A stretch of DNA of 35,867 bases from IMG/VR virus record IMGVR_UViG_2648501437_000030; one strand, 5' to 3'. The stretch is from a virus (lineage: Duplodnaviria > Heunggongvirae > Uroviricota > Caudoviricetes). Shown in pieces: positions 7,728-35,245 of this stretch (position 1 is its first letter; the number at the start of each line of letters is the position of its first letter). Under the pieces are notes generated by a model. That model saw nothing but the letters and a program-made list of their open reading frames with translations, was not told the origin of the DNA and did no database searches. The position numbers were made by a program, and so were the translations under genes.

Positions 7728-8256
7728 ATTAATTCATGTTGCCCGCCGGGAGTTGCACCTCGACGATGACACTTACCGCGCCTTTCTGGTGCAGTGCACG
7801 GGCAAAACCAGTTGCCGCGAGCTGTCCGTTGCACAACTGGAACAAGTGCTCGATGCCATGAAAGAGCGCGGTTTTAAAAAGCAGAATAAACATCCCCGCC
7901 GTCGCTTTAAGGGGCATGTCACACCGCGCGAGAAGATTTATAAAATCTGGCAGCAGATGTTTCTTGATGGTTTCGTATCCGATATCAGCGACGCCGCGCT
8001 GGACAAATACGTTGAACGCCTGACGGCCAGACGTAATGGCGGTCAGGGTGTTTCCACGCTGGCATGGTGTCACGGGGAATCGTTGCAGGTTGTGCTCGAA
8101 ACGCTCAAACAGTGGCACATGCGCTGCATCCGTGAAGCCTTTGCCCGACATGGTGTGCCTTTACCTGTAAGCCCATCCGGGCGGGAACTGCGCGGCTATG
8201 ATGCACTGACCAGTGCGTATGCCCGCGCACGAAACAGCGGGAGAATTGCTGTATGA
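7705..8256 (+). CDS. Mu gp16/GemA-like early protein
   Basis: 183 aa from ATG 7705 (RBS AAGGAGA); N-terminus MSRTSLIKLIHVARRELHLDD resembles the Mu gp16 family; located just before mor. Confidence 0.6.
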   Translation: MSRTSLIKLIHVARRELHLDDDTYRAFLVQCTGKTSCRELSVAQLEQVLDAMKERGFKKQNKHPRRRFKGHVTPREKIYKIWQQMFLDGFVSDISDAALDKYVERLTARRNGGQGVSTLAWCHGESLQVVLETLKQWHMRCIREAFARHGVPLPVSPSGRELRGYDALTSAYARARNSGRIAV

Positions 8257-8702
8257 AACAGATGAAAGAGCAGGATTTATTCGAAGACCTCCGGGACGAC
8301 AGCGTTCTGGAATATCTTCATGATTACCAGGAAAACACCGCTTATCCGGCGTTACTTTCTGAACTAAACGCACTGCTGCGTAAAGAGCTGGCCCGGATTG
8401 GCGCAGACCCTGCTCATTCCCTTGAGCTGGTTGTGGCGATTTGTCGCCATATCGGCGGGATGCAGGTTTATGTTCCGAGGGGGAATATTCTGGAGAATCT
8501 TGTCCGGGATATGCGTATCTGGCGTGATTTTAACGGCCATAATATTCCTGAACTGGTTCAGCGTTACGGAGTGACGTATAAAACCGTCTACAAGGCCATC
8601 AAACGGATGCGACGTCTGGAGCGCAATAAATACCAGCCGGATTTGTTTTACCCCTCCCCGAACCTGCCTCACCCCGTTCGTCGTCCGCCACGACGCCCTT
8701 AA
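8253..8702 (+). CDS. mor: Mor/C-family transcriptional activator
   Basis: 149 aa; DPAHSLELVVAICRHIGGMQVYVPRG and C-terminal HTH YGVTYKTVYKAIKRMRR match Mu Mor as recalled. Confidence 0.85.
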   Translation: MKQMKEQDLFEDLRDDSVLEYLHDYQENTAYPALLSELNALLRKELARIGADPAHSLELVVAICRHIGGMQVYVPRGNILENLVRDMRIWRDFNGHNIPELVQRYGVTYKTVYKAIKRMRRLERNKYQPDLFYPSPNLPHPVRRPPRRP

Positions 8703-8706
8703 TCAA

Positions 8707-8732
8707 TGAAGCCGGTAAATCCGGCTTTTTTT
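8707..8732 (+). terminator. Rho-independent terminator after mor (GCCGG-TAAAT-CCGGC plus T7)
   Basis: Short GC stem, 5-nt loop, T-run; the same 26-mer recurs at 16428..16453. Confidence 0.7.
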
Positions 8733-8787
8733 ATGCCTCCGGCACCATGAAGCAGACCACGTTTAACTCTGCTTCACAGGTGTTTTT

Positions 8788-9384
8788 ATGGAAAATCAAA
8801 AATTCTCCCCGGCCTTTGAGCATGCGCTGAATTTCATTCTGCGTCCCGATATCGAAGGCGTCTATGTCAATGACTCCACTGACCGTGGCGGCGAAACCAA
8901 ATACGGCATTTCTGACCGCCGCGACGGTGTGATTGACGGCAAAACCGATGTCAACGGTGACGGTAAACCGGATACCCGCATCAAAGATTTAACCCGCGAA
9001 CAGGCCGCACAGATTTACCTGCGTGATTACTGGCTGCCTGCCGGATGTGACCAGTGGCCTGATGGCGTGGCGCTTTTTGTGTTTGATGCGGCGGTTCAGC
9101 ATGGCGTTAAAAAGGCTATCAAACTTTTGCAGGAAGCCGCTGATGTGGATGCTGACGGCATCATCGGGCCGCGTACCCGCAAGGCCGTGAGCCAGTCCAC
9201 CCCTGACTGGCTGCTGGCCCGCTGTATTGTCCGTCGCTCCCGCTTTTATGCCGACATCATCAAATCAAAACCCGCCCAGGGCAAATACCTGAACGGCTGG
9301 TTTAACCGCATGGAAAAGCTGACCGACGCCTGTCTGGAAATCATCGATACCCCTCTGGGCATCATGTCCGCCACGCGGGGGTGA
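8788..9384 (+). CDS. Endolysin (GH108-like N-terminal domain plus C-terminal peptidoglycan-binding domain)
   Basis: 198 aa; DRGGETKYGIS catalytic-region motif and C-terminal GWFNRM motif; first late gene after mor. Confidence 0.8.
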   Translation: MENQKFSPAFEHALNFILRPDIEGVYVNDSTDRGGETKYGISDRRDGVIDGKTDVNGDGKPDTRIKDLTREQAAQIYLRDYWLPAGCDQWPDGVALFVFDAAVQHGVKKAIKLLQEAADVDADGIIGPRTRKAVSQSTPDWLLARCIVRRSRFYADIIKSKPAQGKYLNGWFNRMEKLTDACLEIIDTPLGIMSATRG

Positions 9385-9385
9385 T

Positions 9386-9613
9386 ATGGGCAAAGGCTGG
9401 GATGCCTCACTGAAAGCCGGGCGGCGTGACCGCCTGCGTCAGGAGGTTCTGCACCGCATGGCCGGAGGTCCGCCCCCGAAACCGCTGGACTATACCGGCC
9501 ATGACGGCACACACGCCAGCTACTACATGCGTGGCTGGAACTCCGTGGATACACGGGACGTTTTCTGGCAGTGCCAGAAGTACAAGGAAAAACTCAATGC
9601 ACAGAATGAATAG
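9386..9613 (+). CDS. Hypothetical lysis-region protein
   Basis: 75 aa, start 1 nt after endolysin stop; no family recognised. Confidence 0.45.
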   Translation: MGKGWDASLKAGRRDRLRQEVLHRMAGGPPPKPLDYTGHDGTHASYYMRGWNSVDTRDVFWQCQKYKEKLNAQNE

Positions 9614-13963: not shown

Positions 13964-15531
13964 ACCTGAAACAACTGGCCGGGGCCGTTCGCCGTCTGCT
14001 GAACCCGGCAACCGGTGAGGAAGACACGCTGAAAAAAGAGGCGCTCAACGAAGCACAGGCCCGTCCGCGTCATGCCGGTGTGCGTTCGGCCTCGCCGGGT
14101 ATCAGCGTCGCCTCCGGGCTGAACCCCGGCAGGCTGGCAGGCATTCTGCGCAATGCTACTGACGGCATCACGCGTGATTTTTTTATCCTTGCTGAAGAGA
14201 TGGAAGAACGCGATTTGCATTACGCCTCGGTACTGCGCACCCGCAAGCTGACGGTGGCGGGTATCGAACCGGTGGTGGTGGCCGCCAGTGATGACGATGC
14301 TGACGTGCAACTGGCGGACGCCATCCGTGCACTGATGGAGGCACCGCAAATCCCTGAGCTGATGTTTGATCTGCTCGACGGGCTGGGAAAAGGCGTGGCG
14401 GTCTGTGAAATTTTGTGGAACACCCGCAACAACCACTGGGTGCCCCGTGATTATGAGTGGGTTGATCCCCGTTTTCTGAAAGCCGAAAAACCCACGCTGC
14501 GCCAGTTCCGCCTGCTGACGGACGATGAACCGGTGGATGGCGTACCGCTGACACCGGGAAAATTCATTGTTCACCAGCCGCGCCTGAAATCCGGTTTGCC
14601 GTTGCGTAACGGTCTGGCCCGTCTGGTGGCGGTGATGTATATGCTGAAATCCTTTACCGTGCGCGACTGGTGGGCATTTGCGGAAAAATTCGGCATTCCG
14701 GTCACGGTGGGGAAATACGGTCCCAACGCCACGGAGGAACAAATCCGCGTGCTGATTGATGCGATTGCGTCCATTGCCTCGGATGCCGGGTGTGCCATTC
14801 CGCAGTCCATGCAACTGGAGATGCAGGAAACCGCCAGCCGGAATAACGGCGGCGCACTGTTCCGTGAAATGGCGGAATGGTGTGATGCGCAAATCAGTAA
14901 GGCTGTGCTGGGGCAGACCATGACCACGGATAACGGCAGTTCGCGTTCACAGGCGGACGTGCACAATCAGGTGCGCATGGACATTGTGCGCTGGGACGCG
15001 CGGCAGCTGGCTAACACGCTGAATGAATATCTGGTGCGGCCCTACATCGAGGCCAACTACGGGCCACAGGCGCACTACCCCCGTGTTGTTCTGCGTATCA
15101 GTGAAGCGGAAGATCTGAAGGCGCTGACAGATGCTCTGGTGCCGCTGATTGACCGGGGGATGCGGGTTCAGGAATCGGAGCTGCGGGACCGGTTCGGCCT
15201 GGCTGAACCGGACGACGGGGCTGATGTTCTGCATCCGGTGTCTGCCGGAATGTCAGGTGATGTGGCGATGAACCGCGAGCGCGTCGCCCTGAACCGGGAA
15301 CACCCCGACGAACTGGCACAGATGGTGGATGATGCCCTGCGTGACTGGCAGAAAACCGGCGAAGCGTTCACGAACCCGGTGCTGACACTGGCGCAGGAAT
15401 GCGACAGTTTTGATGACTTTCTGAAACGCCTGCCTGAGCTTCAGGAAACGCTGAACGCGGACGACTTTGCCCTGCAACTGGCGGAGGTGTGCTTTAAGGC
15501 GCGTGCGCTGGGGGACACTGCTCATGCGTGA
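13960..15531 (+). CDS. Portal protein (Mu gp29-like)
   Basis: 523 aa, GTG start with RBS GAGGGAGG; follows the terminase. Confidence 0.85.
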   Translation: MNLKQLAGAVRRLLNPATGEEDTLKKEALNEAQARPRHAGVRSASPGISVASGLNPGRLAGILRNATDGITRDFFILAEEMEERDLHYASVLRTRKLTVAGIEPVVVAASDDDADVQLADAIRALMEAPQIPELMFDLLDGLGKGVAVCEILWNTRNNHWVPRDYEWVDPRFLKAEKPTLRQFRLLTDDEPVDGVPLTPGKFIVHQPRLKSGLPLRNGLARLVAVMYMLKSFTVRDWWAFAEKFGIPVTVGKYGPNATEEQIRVLIDAIASIASDAGCAIPQSMQLEMQETASRNNGGALFREMAEWCDAQISKAVLGQTMTTDNGSSRSQADVHNQVRMDIVRWDARQLANTLNEYLVRPYIEANYGPQAHYPRVVLRISEAEDLKALTDALVPLIDRGMRVQESELRDRFGLAEPDDGADVLHPVSAGMSGDVAMNRERVALNREHPDELAQMVDDALRDWQKTGEAFTNPVLTLAQECDSFDDFLKRLPELQETLNADDFALQLAEVCFKARALGDTAHA

Positions 15532-16288
15532 AACCCTCATCCCGAAAGAGGCGCTGGCGTGGCTGAAGGCGAAGAAGCTGCGCCCCGGTTTTGATTACCG
15601 GGATGTATGGCGGGAAGAACACCGGAACAGCTTCACCGTGGCAAAAATGCTGCAACTGGATTTGTTGTCGGATGTGAAAGTCCTTGTGGAAGACGCCCTG
15701 CAAAGCGGACAGACGTTCAGCGAGTTCCGGGAGGCGCTGCAACCGCTGCTGATAAAACGCGGATGGTGGGGTGTTCAGGAGATGGATGATCCGCTGACGG
15801 GCGAAACCCGAACCGTACAGCTGGGCAGCGACCGCCGCCTCCGCACGATTTTTGACACCAACATGCGCACTGCCCGCGCGGCGGGCCAGTGGGAACGCAT
15901 TCAGCGAACAAAGCGGGCCATGCCGTATCTGATTTACGAGCTGGGGCCATCCCGCGAGCACCGGGCGGAGCATGTGAAATGGGCGCGTCTGTGTCTGCCG
16001 GTAGATCATCCGTTCTGGCAGACACATTTTGCCCCTAACGGCTGGGGCTGCAAATGCACCATCCGTCAGGTCAGCCGTGGTGAGTATGCGCAACTGGCGG
16101 CACAGGGCACCATTCACACCGAAGCGCCGGAAATCAGAACCGTCCGCTGGGTGAATAAACGCACGGGCGAAGAGGAAGACGTGCCGGAAGGGATTGATCC
16201 GGGCTGGAACTACAACCCCGGCATAAACCGTGAGCAGGAGCTGGCACGCCAGCTGGCAGCCAGACAGGCACGTTTTGACAGTGAATAA
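15524..16288 (+). CDS. Head morphogenesis protein (Mu F / gp30-like)
   Basis: About 254 aa from ATG 15524, overlapping the portal stop. Confidence 0.8.
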   Translation: MRETLIPKEALAWLKAKKLRPGFDYRDVWREEHRNSFTVAKMLQLDLLSDVKVLVEDALQSGQTFSEFREALQPLLIKRGWWGVQEMDDPLTGETRTVQLGSDRRLRTIFDTNMRTARAAGQWERIQRTKRAMPYLIYELGPSREHRAEHVKWARLCLPVDHPFWQTHFAPNGWGCKCTIRQVSRGEYAQLAAQGTIHTEAPEIRTVRWVNKRTGEEEDVPEGIDPGWNYNPGINREQELARQLAARQARFDSE

Positions 16289-16427
16289 CCCTCCCGCCGT
16301 AAATCCCCCTGAAACGCATCAGAAACGCGTTTTTTATTCTGATGGTGTGAATGTGCATTCTGACTTTTTTGAAGGTGCTGTGGCGTTTTTGAAGGGGTTT
16401 TGAAGGGGGGGGGCTTCCCGTTTTCAG

Positions 16428-16453
16428 TGAAGCCGGTAAATCCGGCTTTTTTT
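16428..16453 (+). terminator. Rho-independent terminator before gene I (exact copy of the 8707..8732 element)
   Basis: TGAAGCCGGTAAATCCGGCTTTTTTT identical 26-mer. Confidence 0.65.
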
Positions 16454-16502
16454 CTGCCTTCCGCATACTGACCGTCGGTAACCCCAGACGACGGAGACTG
16501 AC

Positions 16503-17465
16503 ATGAAACCGGAACTGCTGGCGCTGTGTTTTTCCCTGCCAGAACCCATCCCTGAGCTGACACCTGCTCAACTGCCGGAATGGCTTGAACTCGTTCCTGC
16601 GGGTGAGTTCACCGGGCGCGATGGCCGGACGTGGATTAACCGCAATCCGCATGAGGTGGTTGCCCGTTCGTCCGACATCAAAATTCCGGTGGACATTGAA
16701 CACGCCACCGAAATTAAAGGGCAACGCGGTGATGAAGCCCCGGCGTATGGCTGGGTGGAAGAACTGCGGGTGACAGACAGCGGCACCATTGAAGGCCGTG
16801 TTGTCTGGAGCGAATACGCCCGGTGGATGCTGAGCGAGCGCCGCTACCGCTATTACAGCCCGGCGTTTTTCCATGACGCGGAGGGTGTGGTGACGCGCCT
16901 GTCCAGCGTCGGGCTGACCAACAAACCTAATCTGGACTTTCCTGCACTGAATACGGAGAAAAACCCGATGACAGTACCTGTGCAAATCACCGGCCTGCTT
17001 GGGCTGGCTGAATCTGCCACGGTGGACGATACCGTGGCCGCCATTAAACAACTTCAGGAGAACGAACAGGTGGCGCTGAACCGCGCACAGACACCTGACC
17101 TGACGAAGTTTGTACCGGTGGAAACCCACAATCTGGCACTGAACCGTGCCGAAACCGCAGAACAACGCCTTCAGCAACTGGAAGAGAAGGAAGCAGAAGC
17201 GCTTGTGGATGCGGCCATCGAAGCCGGAAAAGTGGCCCCGGCAAACCGTGACATGTTCCTTGCCACCTGCCGCACGGAAGAAGGCCGCAAACAGTTTGCG
17301 GAGTACACCAAAGGTGCACAGCCGCTGGTGAACAACGACAAGCCCAGCCAGGGCAAGGATAAACCCGCGCAGACACTGACCGACGCCGAACTGGCGATGT
17401 GCCGCAGCATGGGTATTACCGGGGAAGAGTTCCTCGCCGCTAAACCTAAACAGGAGAATAACTGA
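16503..17465 (+). CDS. Head protease/scaffold protein (Mu I-like)
   Basis: 320 aa; Mu I-like N-terminal region and coiled-coil C-terminal scaffold part; RBS GGAGAC. Confidence 0.8.
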   Translation: MKPELLALCFSLPEPIPELTPAQLPEWLELVPAGEFTGRDGRTWINRNPHEVVARSSDIKIPVDIEHATEIKGQRGDEAPAYGWVEELRVTDSGTIEGRVVWSEYARWMLSERRYRYYSPAFFHDAEGVVTRLSSVGLTNKPNLDFPALNTEKNPMTVPVQITGLLGLAESATVDDTVAAIKQLQENEQVALNRAQTPDLTKFVPVETHNLALNRAETAEQRLQQLEEKEAEALVDAAIEAGKVAPANRDMFLATCRTEEGRKQFAEYTKGAQPLVNNDKPSQGKDKPAQTLTDAELAMCRSMGITGEEFLAAKPKQENN

Positions 17466-26972: not shown

Positions 26973-27499
26973 ACGCCATTGCCCGCCGTCTGCGGCTGCT
27001 GGTTGATCGTGCCGTTGTCCGCATGGTGTCTGACAGTCTGGAGCGGCAGAACCTGCAAATCCAGACGCTGGCAGATGCCACTGACGACGACGTGGAACGC
27101 TTCCAGAACTACGGGTTTACTTCCGTTCCGCCGGAAGGTTCTGAAGCCATTGTGCTGGCCGTTGGCGGACGGCGTGACGGGCTGGTTGCCATCGCGGTGG
27201 AGGACAAGCGATGTCGCCCGAAAGGACTGTCCCCCGGCGATGTCCGGCTTTATCACCGGGACGGCAAATCACACATCACCCTGAAGGAAAACGGCGTCAT
27301 TGAAATCACAGGAGAACAATTAAACGTTTCAGGGAAAACGGTAAATCTCACCGCCGACGAATTGCTGAATATTATCGGTAAACAAATGAAATTCGTCGGT
27401 CCCTGTGAATTTACTGAAGATGTCAGAATCAACGGTAAATCATTCATCGAACACATTCATAAGGACGGCGACAATGAGAATACATCACCGCCCGTATGA
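26963..27499 (+). CDS. Baseplate assembly/spike protein (Mu gp45-like)
   Basis: 178 aa from ATG 26963 (MGLNAIARRL...). Confidence 0.75.
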   Translation: MGLNAIARRLRLLVDRAVVRMVSDSLERQNLQIQTLADATDDDVERFQNYGFTSVPPEGSEAIVLAVGGRRDGLVAIAVEDKRCRPKGLSPGDVRLYHRDGKSHITLKENGVIEITGEQLNVSGKTVNLTADELLNIIGKQMKFVGPCEFTEDVRINGKSFIEHIHKDGDNENTSPPV

Positions 27500-33718: not shown

Positions 33719-34285
33719 ATGGAAGTAAAAAAAATCGAAAATGCGCGCTGGCTGGAAAGCGGCGCGATTGACTGCGACGTATTGTTTGAGGGGATGGACG
33801 AGGCCCTGCCGTATACAGCGACAGCAGACGATACCGCACCGACGGGCCAGCAAATCTGGCAGGAACTGCAAAGTGGCAAATGGGGTGAAATCGCCCCGTT
33901 TACAGTCACGCCTGAACTTATCGCAGCGGCAAAAGATGCCAAAAAGATGGAAATCGAGGCGTGGCGCACAGAACAGGAGGCACTGCCGTTCACGTTCGAA
34001 TGGAATGGCCGCACCTGGAATGCTGGCCCCGACTCAATGGCCCGTCTTTATCCGGTAGTAATGGCGGCGAAATCCGATACGGCACGAACCACCCTTGCGT
34101 GGGGTGATGCCGATAATCAACAGGTGAAACTGTCAATGCCGGAACTGGAAGAACTGGCGACAGCAATGGCGCAGGCACAGGTCGATCGCAATGACGAGAT
34201 TTATCAGCGCCAGCGTGAAATGAAGGAGCAGCTTTCCCGGCTGTCCATACTGGACGAGGTGAGAGCGTTATCGGTGATTAAATAA
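33719..34285 (+). CDS. Tail fibre assembly chaperone-like protein (DUF4376-type)
   Basis: 188 aa immediately downstream of the Stf-like gene; FEWNGRTWNAGPDSMARL motif typical of fibre-adjacent chaperone-like proteins. Confidence 0.6.
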   Translation: MEVKKIENARWLESGAIDCDVLFEGMDEALPYTATADDTAPTGQQIWQELQSGKWGEIAPFTVTPELIAAAKDAKKMEIEAWRTEQEALPFTFEWNGRTWNAGPDSMARLYPVVMAAKSDTARTTLAWGDADNQQVKLSMPELEELATAMAQAQVDRNDEIYQRQREMKEQLSRLSILDEVRALSVIK

Positions 34286-34303
34286 TCAGTTTGTATAGTT
34301 TAT

Positions 34304-34331
34304 GACGATCGATAACATCATATCGATCGTC
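34304..34331. promoter_or_regulatory. Perfect 11-bp inverted repeat with two GATC sites upstream of com/mom
   Basis: GACGATCGATA-acatca-TATCGATCGTC, GATC at 34307..34310 and 34325..34328, about 75 bp upstream of the com start. Confidence 0.45.
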
Positions 34332-34404
34332 GGTTTGCATCAGTTGTGATTAAATACCCCCAGCCCTCCGGGCGGTCATGTCTGGTTATTACACAGGGGG
34401 AATC

Positions 34405-34590
34405 ATGGACTCTGTTCGCTGTAAAAACTGCAATAAATTACTGTTTAAAGGAGGTTTTAAGCATATAGAAATTAAATGCCCTCGCTGTAAACGTTACATT
34501 GTCATATCGAATGCCAAAGAGCATCCCACGGAGCTGTATTGTGGGAAAAGAGAAGAAATCACGCATTCTGACAAAACCCTGCGTTATTGA
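34405..34590 (+). CDS. com: Com zinc-finger translational activator of mom
   Basis: 61 aa from ATG 34405 (RBS AGGGGG); ...[26 protein letters not shown]... near-identical to Mu Com as recalled. Confidence 0.85.
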
Positions 34591-35245
34591 GTATGAAGGC
34601 CGGATTGTCGGCTATGGTTCAAGGGAGTTGCGCGTTGAAACCATATCCTGTTGGCTGGCCCGCACAATCATTCAGACAAAACACTATTCCCGCCGTTTTG
34701 TGAATAACTCCTACCTGCATCTGGGCGTATTCAGCGGACGTGATCTGGTTGGCGTTCTTCAGTGGGGATATGCCCTTAACCCCAACTCAGGGCGTCGTGT
34801 TGTGCTGGAAACGGATAACCGGAGCTATATGGAACTGAACCGCATGTGGTTACACGACGACATGCCCCGCAACTCTGAATCACGGGCCATCAGCTACGCG
34901 CTAAAAACCATCAGACTACTGTATCCGTCAGTGGAGTGGGTTCAGTCTTTTGCCGACGAACGCTGCGGACGCGCTGGTGTGGTATATCAGGCGTCGAATT
35001 TTGATTTTATTGGCAGCCATGAAAGCACGTTCTACGAGCTGGATGGTGAGTGGTATCACGAGATAACGATGAACGCGATTAAGCGTGGAGGGCAACGAGG
35101 CGTGTATTTGCGGGCTAATAAGGAGCGGGCCGTGGTACACAAATTTAATCAGTATCGCTACATCAGGTTCCTGAATAAGCGCGCAAAAAAGCGACTAAAC
35201 ACTAAGCTATTCAGGATTCAGCCATACCCCAAAAACACATCTTGA
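34511..35245 (+). CDS. mom: Mom DNA-modification enzyme (adenine N6 carbamoylmethyl-type modification); start codon uncertain
   Basis: ORF open from 34499 (TTG); in-frame ATG 34511 and GTG 34541; overlaps the 3-prime end of com; sequence closely matches Mu Mom as recalled. Confidence 0.85.

Follow-up and report, generated by a model that had tools for sequence, protein, structure and literature searches.

A repeated element at two operon boundaries of a Mu-like Escherichia coli prophage combines a predicted Mor operator with a terminator-like hairpin

A 26-bp sequence that occurs twice, without a difference, in one prophage raises the question of what kind of element it is and why its copies are alike. 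We addressed this question in a window of 35,867 nucleotides, the whole stretch of DNA analyzed, which represents a Mu-like prophage of Escherichia coli (IMG/VR record IMGVR_UViG_2648501437_000030). An exact search of the window identified the 26-mer, TGAAGCCGGTAAATCCGGCTTTTTTT, at positions 8707–8732 (copy 1) and 16428–16453 (copy 2), both on the plus strand. No further match with three or fewer mismatches was found in the window and none was found in 100 dinucleotide-preserving shuffles, so that no match is expected by chance. The likeness of the copies exceeded the 26 bp, as 41 of 49 positions were identical between 8703–8751 and 16424–16472, and the 50-nt flanks of this tract were identical at 15/50 and 11/50 positions, which is the random level.

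The tested stretch was 100% identical to a prophage of E. coli RM11911, which interrupts gspE there, and relatives of the prophage were present in approximately 46–49 of 5426 complete E. coli genomes. Positions 1–897 of the window are the 5' part of gspE, a host type II secretion gene split by the prophage insertion, and the rest of gspE lies beyond the right end, as seen in RM11911. The early genes are ordered repressor, ner-like gene, transposase A, B, gam, gp16 and mor (8253–8702, plus strand, with its TAA at 8700–8702). Copy 1 starts 5 nt past the mor stop codon and lies 56 nt before the ATG (8788) of a GH108 endolysin gene (8788–9384, plus strand; Pfam PF05838 and PF09374), which is the first of a series of lysis, terminase and portal genes that ends with a Mu-F-like minor head gene (15524–16288, plus strand; PF04233). 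Copy 2 is located 140 nt past the stop of this F-like gene (16288) and 50 nt before the ATG (16503) of the Mu-like protease/scaffold gene I (16503–17465, plus strand; PF10123), after which come the major head gene T, the tail genes, com and mom. The sequence-only reading of this DNA had reported an identical 26-bp element, present twice at two operon boundaries, and both parts of that report were confirmed, the boundaries being mor/endolysin and F-like gene/gene I.

Several other features were observed around the two copies. The endolysin gene is followed by a homologue of Mu E18, within 8788–9613. Directly after the F-like gene there is a weak additional terminator-like hairpin (AAACGC...GCGTTTTTT, 16311–16336), so that up to three stem-loop/T-run elements may stand in tandem before gene I. 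Upstream of copy 2, the region 16360–16420 contains three repeats of TTTTGAAGG(G/T)G, whose motif in relatives is TTTAAACG, and then a small GGGG...CCC hairpin with a G9 tract. In alignments, these repeats match the Mu region on the right-hand side of its strong gyrase cut site as annotated (TTTTTTAAAACG..TTTTTAAACC..TTTAACGG), near the genome center. The G tract reads G9C in the window and G7TC in the otherwise identical RM11911 prophage.

Either copy was predicted to fold into an 8-bp stem with five G-C pairs and a 5-nt loop (-12.6 kcal/mol, z approximately -3), followed by a T run. The arms in copy 1 are GAAGCCGG and CCGGCTTT, on either side of the loop TAAAT and before T7, and copy 2 has the same hairpin and T7. 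A generic terminator scan of the window listed both copies as terminator-like, and no Rfam family was found in the window. The earlier description of the element as a terminator was therefore appropriate as far as the hairpin and T run are concerned, but it was incomplete, as it missed the main identity of the element as a homologue of the Mu middle promoter, Pm.

In Mu, the sequence directly after mor, aacagTAAAGCCGGTTAATCCGGCTTTTTTTacgtcctcaaTATCCTgtgatgaA (NC_000929), is the middle promoter Pm, which reads aacagTAAAGCCGGTTAATCCGGCTTTTTTTacgtcctcaaTATCCT. The core of Mu Pm, TAAAGCCGGTTAATCCGGCTTTTTTT (NC_000929, approximately 9163–9225), was near-identical to the window 26-mer, and both Mu Pm and copy 1 are directly after the early operon. 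We take the Mu early transcript to end at the terminator t9.2, which overlaps Pm. The Mor dyad of Mu Pm was previously located at -51 to -36 (center, -43.5); a G/C-rich hexamer separates its two inverted repeats of 5 bp, and the promoter itself has a -10 and lacks a -35 (PMC4390567; PMC4287176). After calibration of the Mu +1 numbering by the published bases -57G and -54A, the Mu dyad was AGTAA-AGCCGG-TTAAT, with the right arm of the hairpin, CCGGCT, at -35 to -30 and the T run at -29 to -23; a published Pm cloning primer begins at the Mu hairpin. The 5' half shared by the two window copies, A(A/G)TGA-AGCCGG-TAAAT, aligned with this mapped Mor-binding dyad. The predicted dyad of copy 1 (AATGA-AGCCGG-TAAAT, 8705–8720, plus strand) was identical to that of Mu Pm at 13 of 16 positions and the predicted dyad of copy 2 (AGTGA-AGCCGG-TAAAT, 16426–16441, plus strand) at 14 of 16. 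Judged from these alignments, the left arm and loop of the hairpin form the predicted Mor operator, and the 26-mer is this putative operator fused to the rest of a terminator hairpin.

The spacing to a -10 was also that of Mu Pm. The -10-like hexamers CACCAT of copy 1 (8743–8748, plus strand), which is weak, and CATACT of copy 2 (16464–16469, plus strand) begin 27 nt past the loop start, an offset identical to that of TATCCT in Mu Pm. A -10 whose second base is A and whose sixth base is T, located 27–28 nt past the loop start, was found in Mu, in both window copies and in 19 of 19 relatives examined. A sigma-70 scan identified no -35 hexamer and no full promoter at either window copy. Each copy accordingly has the features of a Pm-type promoter: a dyad, a -10 without a -35, and a cognate Mor gene in the early operon. 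We infer that Mor binds at the two copies and that transcription starts near 8756 and 16477, which would leave leaders of 32 nt and 26 nt, respectively, with Shine-Dalgarno sequences. The suggestion that the repeat is a small regulatory cassette was therefore well founded, its parts being the predicted Mor operator, the -10 and the stop-like hairpin.

An inverted repeat straddles each predicted start (8749–8775 and 16472–16494) and is present in Mu Pm as well, the left arm falling between the -10 and +1, and the right arm directly before the ribosome-binding site. Its letters are GAAGCAGA-11nt-TCTGCTTC at copy 1, CCGTCG-11nt-CGACGG at copy 2 and GTGATGA...TCATCAT in Mu. Such repeats also occur in relatives with differing sequences (up to -17.8 kcal/mol, z -6.6), and in RNA they would form only in read-through transcripts.

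The activator complement of the prophage differs from that of Mu. The mor gene is the only gene of the Mor/C family in the window (Pfam PF08765, E 3.6e-30), and its product was 63% identical to Mu Mor and 32% identical to Mu C, with a helix-turn-helix region nearly identical to that of Mu Mor. Searches of the window by tblastn with Mu Mor and Mu C identified no second Mor/C homologue, and the PGAP annotation of the identical RM11911 prophage has one Mor-family protein and no C. With a single Mor gene and C absent, the prophage probably relies on Mor for direct activation of its late operons, at the lysis and head protease operons. Whereas Pm is present in a single copy in Mu, where it drives a short middle operon ending in C, the window has the Pm-type element twice and, in addition, a third box without a hairpin (see below), with the two elements directly before late genes (endolysin and protease I). 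The window Mor also has both of the putative sliding-clamp-binding motifs of MuC, an N-terminal EQDLF and a near-C-terminal YQPDLF, and these two motifs would fit an activator that acts alone and has assumed the late-gene role. Of the putative clamp-binding motifs of MuC, Mu Mor has only the N-terminal DLF (PMC12867686).

The late promoters of Mu provide a direct comparison for copy 2. The C-dependent late promoter PI of Mu occupies the same position, before protease gene I, and the two have homologous -10 regions (CCTCCCGCAAACTGAC in Mu PI, CCTTCCGCATACTGAC in copy 2). However, Mu PI has a C box, GCATAACCCCAG, upstream and needs C, whereas at that place the window has a Mor box and hairpin, and no C gene. 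From this likeness and difference, the gene I promoter appears to respond to Mor in the lineage without C, and to C in Mu. No C box (TTAT-N5-6-ATAA or CATAACCCC) was found at either copy, and neither copy has the make-up of the C-dependent late promoters of Mu (Plys, PI, PP and Pmom). The layout of a stop followed by a restart does have a parallel at the junction of the Mu C operon with Plys, where a terminator-like hairpin, AACCGGCAtcctGCCGGTT, is directly after the activator gene and abuts the next activator box, although the sequence and the activator (C) differ from those of the window element.

At the far end of the window, the com-mom module (34285–35245) has a Mu-like GATC cluster upstream, and the window Mom shared 96% identity with its counterpart in the C-bearing Yersinia Muvirus vB_YpM_5. 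The com/mom promoter region lacks a Mu C box, no Mor box was identified there in a weight-matrix scan, and the module looks recently acquired. The same Yersinia phage has the GH108 gene in its middle operon, together with C and a separate late lysozyme.

To define the conservation of the element independently of its own sequence, relatives were chosen by the Mor protein alone, which gave 10 loci from other Enterobacterales (66–71% identity) and Klebsiella phage Kp4866-3. The canonical element was present before the first late gene in 11 of these 11 relatives, with flanks that were otherwise unrelated. In the ten Enterobacterales loci it consisted of GAAGCCGGTWAATCCGGC, T7–8 and a cAnnAT hexamer at +27, before a GH108 gene, and no C homologue was found within 10 kb of any of these loci; Kp4866-3 gave a like picture. 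These ten relatives have an additional small membrane-protein-like gene between mor and the promoter. Considering all protein-anchored or reference relatives, the hairpin/T-run element past the early operon was invariant in 13 of 13.

A second set of 78 IMG/VR loci, anchored on protease I alone (49–99% identity), showed a different pattern at the gene I boundary. A Mor box and -10 preceded gene I in all 78, the box reading (c/g)AG(t/g)GAA(a/g)(g/c)CGG-TWAAT and being followed 27–28 nt later by CATACT, CACACT or GACACT. The right arm of the hairpin and the T run were variable or lost in relatives at this boundary, whereas the Mor box and -10 were kept. An exact 21-mer of the element occurred at 125 sites in IMG/VR, of which approximately 100 were past the early operon, 24 were between an F-like gene and gene I, and one was elsewhere. 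The search for further copies in host genomes and related phages, which had been proposed as a check, thus located them in prophage carriers and relatives, at two phage positions.

The predicted activator and its site also varied together. In a set of 57 distinct Mor sequences, the second loop base of the Pm-type site went with the identity of residue 117, which is in the recognition helix (YKAI-K/R-RM), such that K117 occurred with TAAAT in 29 of 35 genomes and R117 with TTAAT in 16 of 16. The window (TAAAT, K) and Mu (TTAAT, R) differ in the same way. This pattern suggests a co-adaptation of Mor residue 117 and the loop base, with which shared ancestry is confounded.

Whether Mor may have further sites was examined with a weight matrix covering the 16-nt dyad and the -10, which was trained on relatives only, with the window copies left out. 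The two copies ranked first (16437, score 33.8) and second (8716, 31.7) in the window. The third match, at 27342 on the plus strand, scored 22.7, which is borderline alone as the best match among 30 shuffles was 22.8, and the next match in the window scored 15.3. This candidate third Mor-dependent promoter (27331–27375, plus strand; ttcAGGGAAAACGGTAAAT...TATTAT) is inside gp45, 155 nt upstream of gp46, and has the Mor box AGGGA-AAACGG-TAAAT and the -10 TATTAT (27370–27375), and lacks a hairpin as well as a T run. In Kp4866-3 (protein identity approximately 55–70%), the top three matches were at the three homologous places (scores 33.9, 29.6 and 26.1; the next was 9.9). A codon alignment showed that 8 of 9 synonymous sites in the gp45 box and -10 were identical, against 0.40 gene-wide, and that the box adjoins a 7-codon indel. 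The third site was conserved in close relatives, and a search anchored on gp46 returned only very close or very distant ones. The candidate third site draws its support mainly from this conservation. The box probably boosts the baseplate and tail-fiber genes. We considered whether it was the positional homologue of Mu PP and rejected this, as Mu PP is inside gene N, upstream of P; in the weight-matrix scan of the window no Mor box was found at the PP-equivalent place or before com/mom.

Each copy also has the anatomy of an intrinsic terminator, with a G+C-rich stem-loop directly followed by T7, on the coding strand and past a stop codon, and we infer that transcription terminates at the copies. 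A terminator with almost the same stem and T run, AATGAAGCCGGCGAATGCCGGCTTTTTTAATGC, is present in the E. coli map-glnD intergenic region of approximately 730 complete E. coli genomes (e.g., the CFT073 spacer). As it is without the TWAAT loop, the half-site or the phage context, the map-glnD terminator is a convergent look-alike and not a copy. We also considered a dispersed host repeat of REP or MITE type, and dropped it because full-length matches were present in only 46 of 5426 genomes, all prophage carriers; the other approximately 730 genomes matched only at the map-glnD look-alike.

Together, these data led us to regard it as likely that the copies are composite cassettes of the Mu Pm type, each joining a stop to a restart, with Mor binding, transcription starts and termination as their predicted activities. 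In such a cassette, A(A/G)TGA-AGCCGG-TAAAT would be the operator of the single Mor activator of the phage. By homology with Mu, bound Mor, centered near -43.5, would replace the missing -35 contact and recruit sigma-70 RNA polymerase to the weak -10, 27 nt beyond the loop start, so that transcription could begin at approximately 8756 for the lysis/head operon and approximately 16477 for the protease I/head operon. In RNA, the right arm CCGGCT would pair with the G+C-rich spacer of the operator and, with the U7 that follows, would act as an intrinsic terminator, of the early operon at copy 1 and of the lysis/head operon at copy 2. If the terminator stops transcripts of the upstream operon, the downstream late genes would depend on Mor. 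The two copies would then be alike because one activator must recognize both and both are fused to a stop signal.

The origin of the 26/26 identity is a separate matter, and one on which a copying event is compatible with the composite cassette. The earlier reading had invoked module shuffling. Since one activator must recognize both copies, shuffling is not needed to account for them, although the identity might stem, in place of independent selection, from a Pm cassette having been copied to the position before gene I, whether through gene conversion or through exchange between phages. Canonical gene I cassettes share TGCCT past the T run with Pm and non-canonical ones do not, every fully canonical gene I cassette carries the loop variant of the Pm in its own genome, and the tips of the protease I tree do not agree with cassette type. 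A perfect within-genome loop concordance (20/20) was seen at first but was discarded as a selection artifact, because that set had been chosen by the exact 21-mer; at protein-anchored loci the loop before gene I agreed with the loop of the genome's own Pm in 44 of 52 genomes. This figure implies that Mor tolerates both loops, and we do not use the concordance as proof. In addition, canonical cassettes occur in several deep lineages, a tract of 26–49 bp is very short for conversion, and ancestry retained under a strong dual constraint fits the identity equally well. Copying is therefore a tentative account of the identity, and one that we lean somewhat against.

Alternatively, the whole 26-mer could be constrained by Mor and RNA polymerase, with the hairpin and T run as by-products without useful termination. 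The bases directly downstream of the dyad are needed for activation in Mu (PMC2582627), so a conserved right arm and T run could serve the promoter and not termination. A recent cryo-EM structure is reported to show a tetramer that has a large footprint and touches two adjacent major grooves (bioRxiv 10.1101/2025.05.02.651988). Moreover, many relatives have a degraded hairpin and T run at the gene I boundary, and the loss of T run or pairing there indicates that termination is dispensable. On the other hand, the third box and many gene I boxes presumably work without the right arm and T run, which implies that Mor itself does not require them. The variants at gene I also bear on pairing. Among 32 distinct gene I variants, 83.6% of cells were paired, compared to 79.2% in shuffles (0/500), and 19 double-change cells were counted against 10.6 ± 3.0 in shuffles (0/500), with the reservation for both comparisons that the sequences are related. 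Examples of changes in both arms that keep pairing in relatives are AACCGG/CCGGTT and AAGGCGG/CCGCCTT, and the right arm often changes with the left, from G-C to A-T or from C-G to G-C. Such compensation centers on the hairpin, as a hairpin would need, and is not expected from the dyad, whose center is 5.5 bp upstream. Pairing is not universal, as pair 14–24 was broken in 15 of the 32 variants, and a number of right arms (CCACCTGA, for example) were wholly unpaired; nonetheless, we abandoned the notion that the variable right arms reflect simple decay, because re-pairing showed that many are compensated. The post-mor stem never varies in relatives and is hence uninformative on compensation. 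However, its perfect hairpin and at least T7 are invariant exactly where insulation matters, at the early/lysis boundary, where read-through would express the lysis genes early, while between late operons the hairpin is often degraded or absent and the Mor box is retained. Based on these observations, we consider it unlikely that the 26-mer is a promoter without a useful stop.

The converse possibility, that the hairpin and T run only end the upstream operons and that the downstream genes are expressed from other promoters or by read-through, accords with the canonical anatomy, with the generic scan and with the location of both copies past stop codons. It is nevertheless very improbable given the homology to the mapped Mor site of Mu Pm, and given that both the likeness of the copies and the conservation in relatives run past the T run to a -10 at fixed spacing. 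At gene I it is the right arm and T run that relatives lose, whereas the left arm, loop and -10 persist, the third box is wholly without a hairpin, and the window scan found no other promoter-like site before these operons. The repeat had also been proposed as a site for homologous recombination, which, between identical 26-bp direct repeats 7721 bp apart, would delete or rearrange the 7.7-kb lysis/head module. Such a role has almost nothing to commend it, as a synthetic mor-to-I deletion junction was covered at 80% or more in 0 of the 46 E. coli genomes that have this prophage type and hold both halves, and as 26 bp is at the lower limit for RecA-dependent exchange.

Returning to the composite cassette, the repeat is best described, on the comparisons made here, as a putative Mor-type docking site merged with a transcription stop signal, and as such it is a recognizable and largely ordinary regulatory element. 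Its kind is already known from the Mu Pm-type Mor promoter overlapping a terminator, and we do not describe a new kind of element. In this case the Pm-type element is present at two late operon boundaries, along with a bare third box, in a Mu-like prophage without C. The lack of a C gene implies a cascade of two tiers, early and then Mor-dependent late, compared to three in Mu.

More broadly, we put forward, as a proposal to which we give slightly less than even weight, that in a widespread C-less lineage of Mu-like phages of the Enterobacterales one Mor-type activator, which unlike Mu Mor has both of the clamp motifs typical of MuC, runs the whole late program from at least three Mor-box promoters. 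The operators at the operon boundaries would be built into a terminator hairpin, with the G+C spacer as its left stem arm, so that insulation and Mor-dependent restart would share a single stretch of 26 bp and evolve together, obligatory between the early and lysis genes and optional between late operons.

These findings turn an anonymous repeat into a testable regulatory map for common Mu-like prophages of E. coli, Klebsiella and Serratia, in which three promoters are predicted to depend on Mor, two terminators are predicted, and the two-tier cascade is set against the three tiers of Mu. Natural variants separate the operator from the terminator, as boxes occur that have a hairpin, that have a compensated stem or that lack the structure, and Mor K/R117 with the second loop base A/T is a candidate protein-DNA specificity pair. 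Both the variants and the candidate pair would be useful for current structural work on Mor/C activators.
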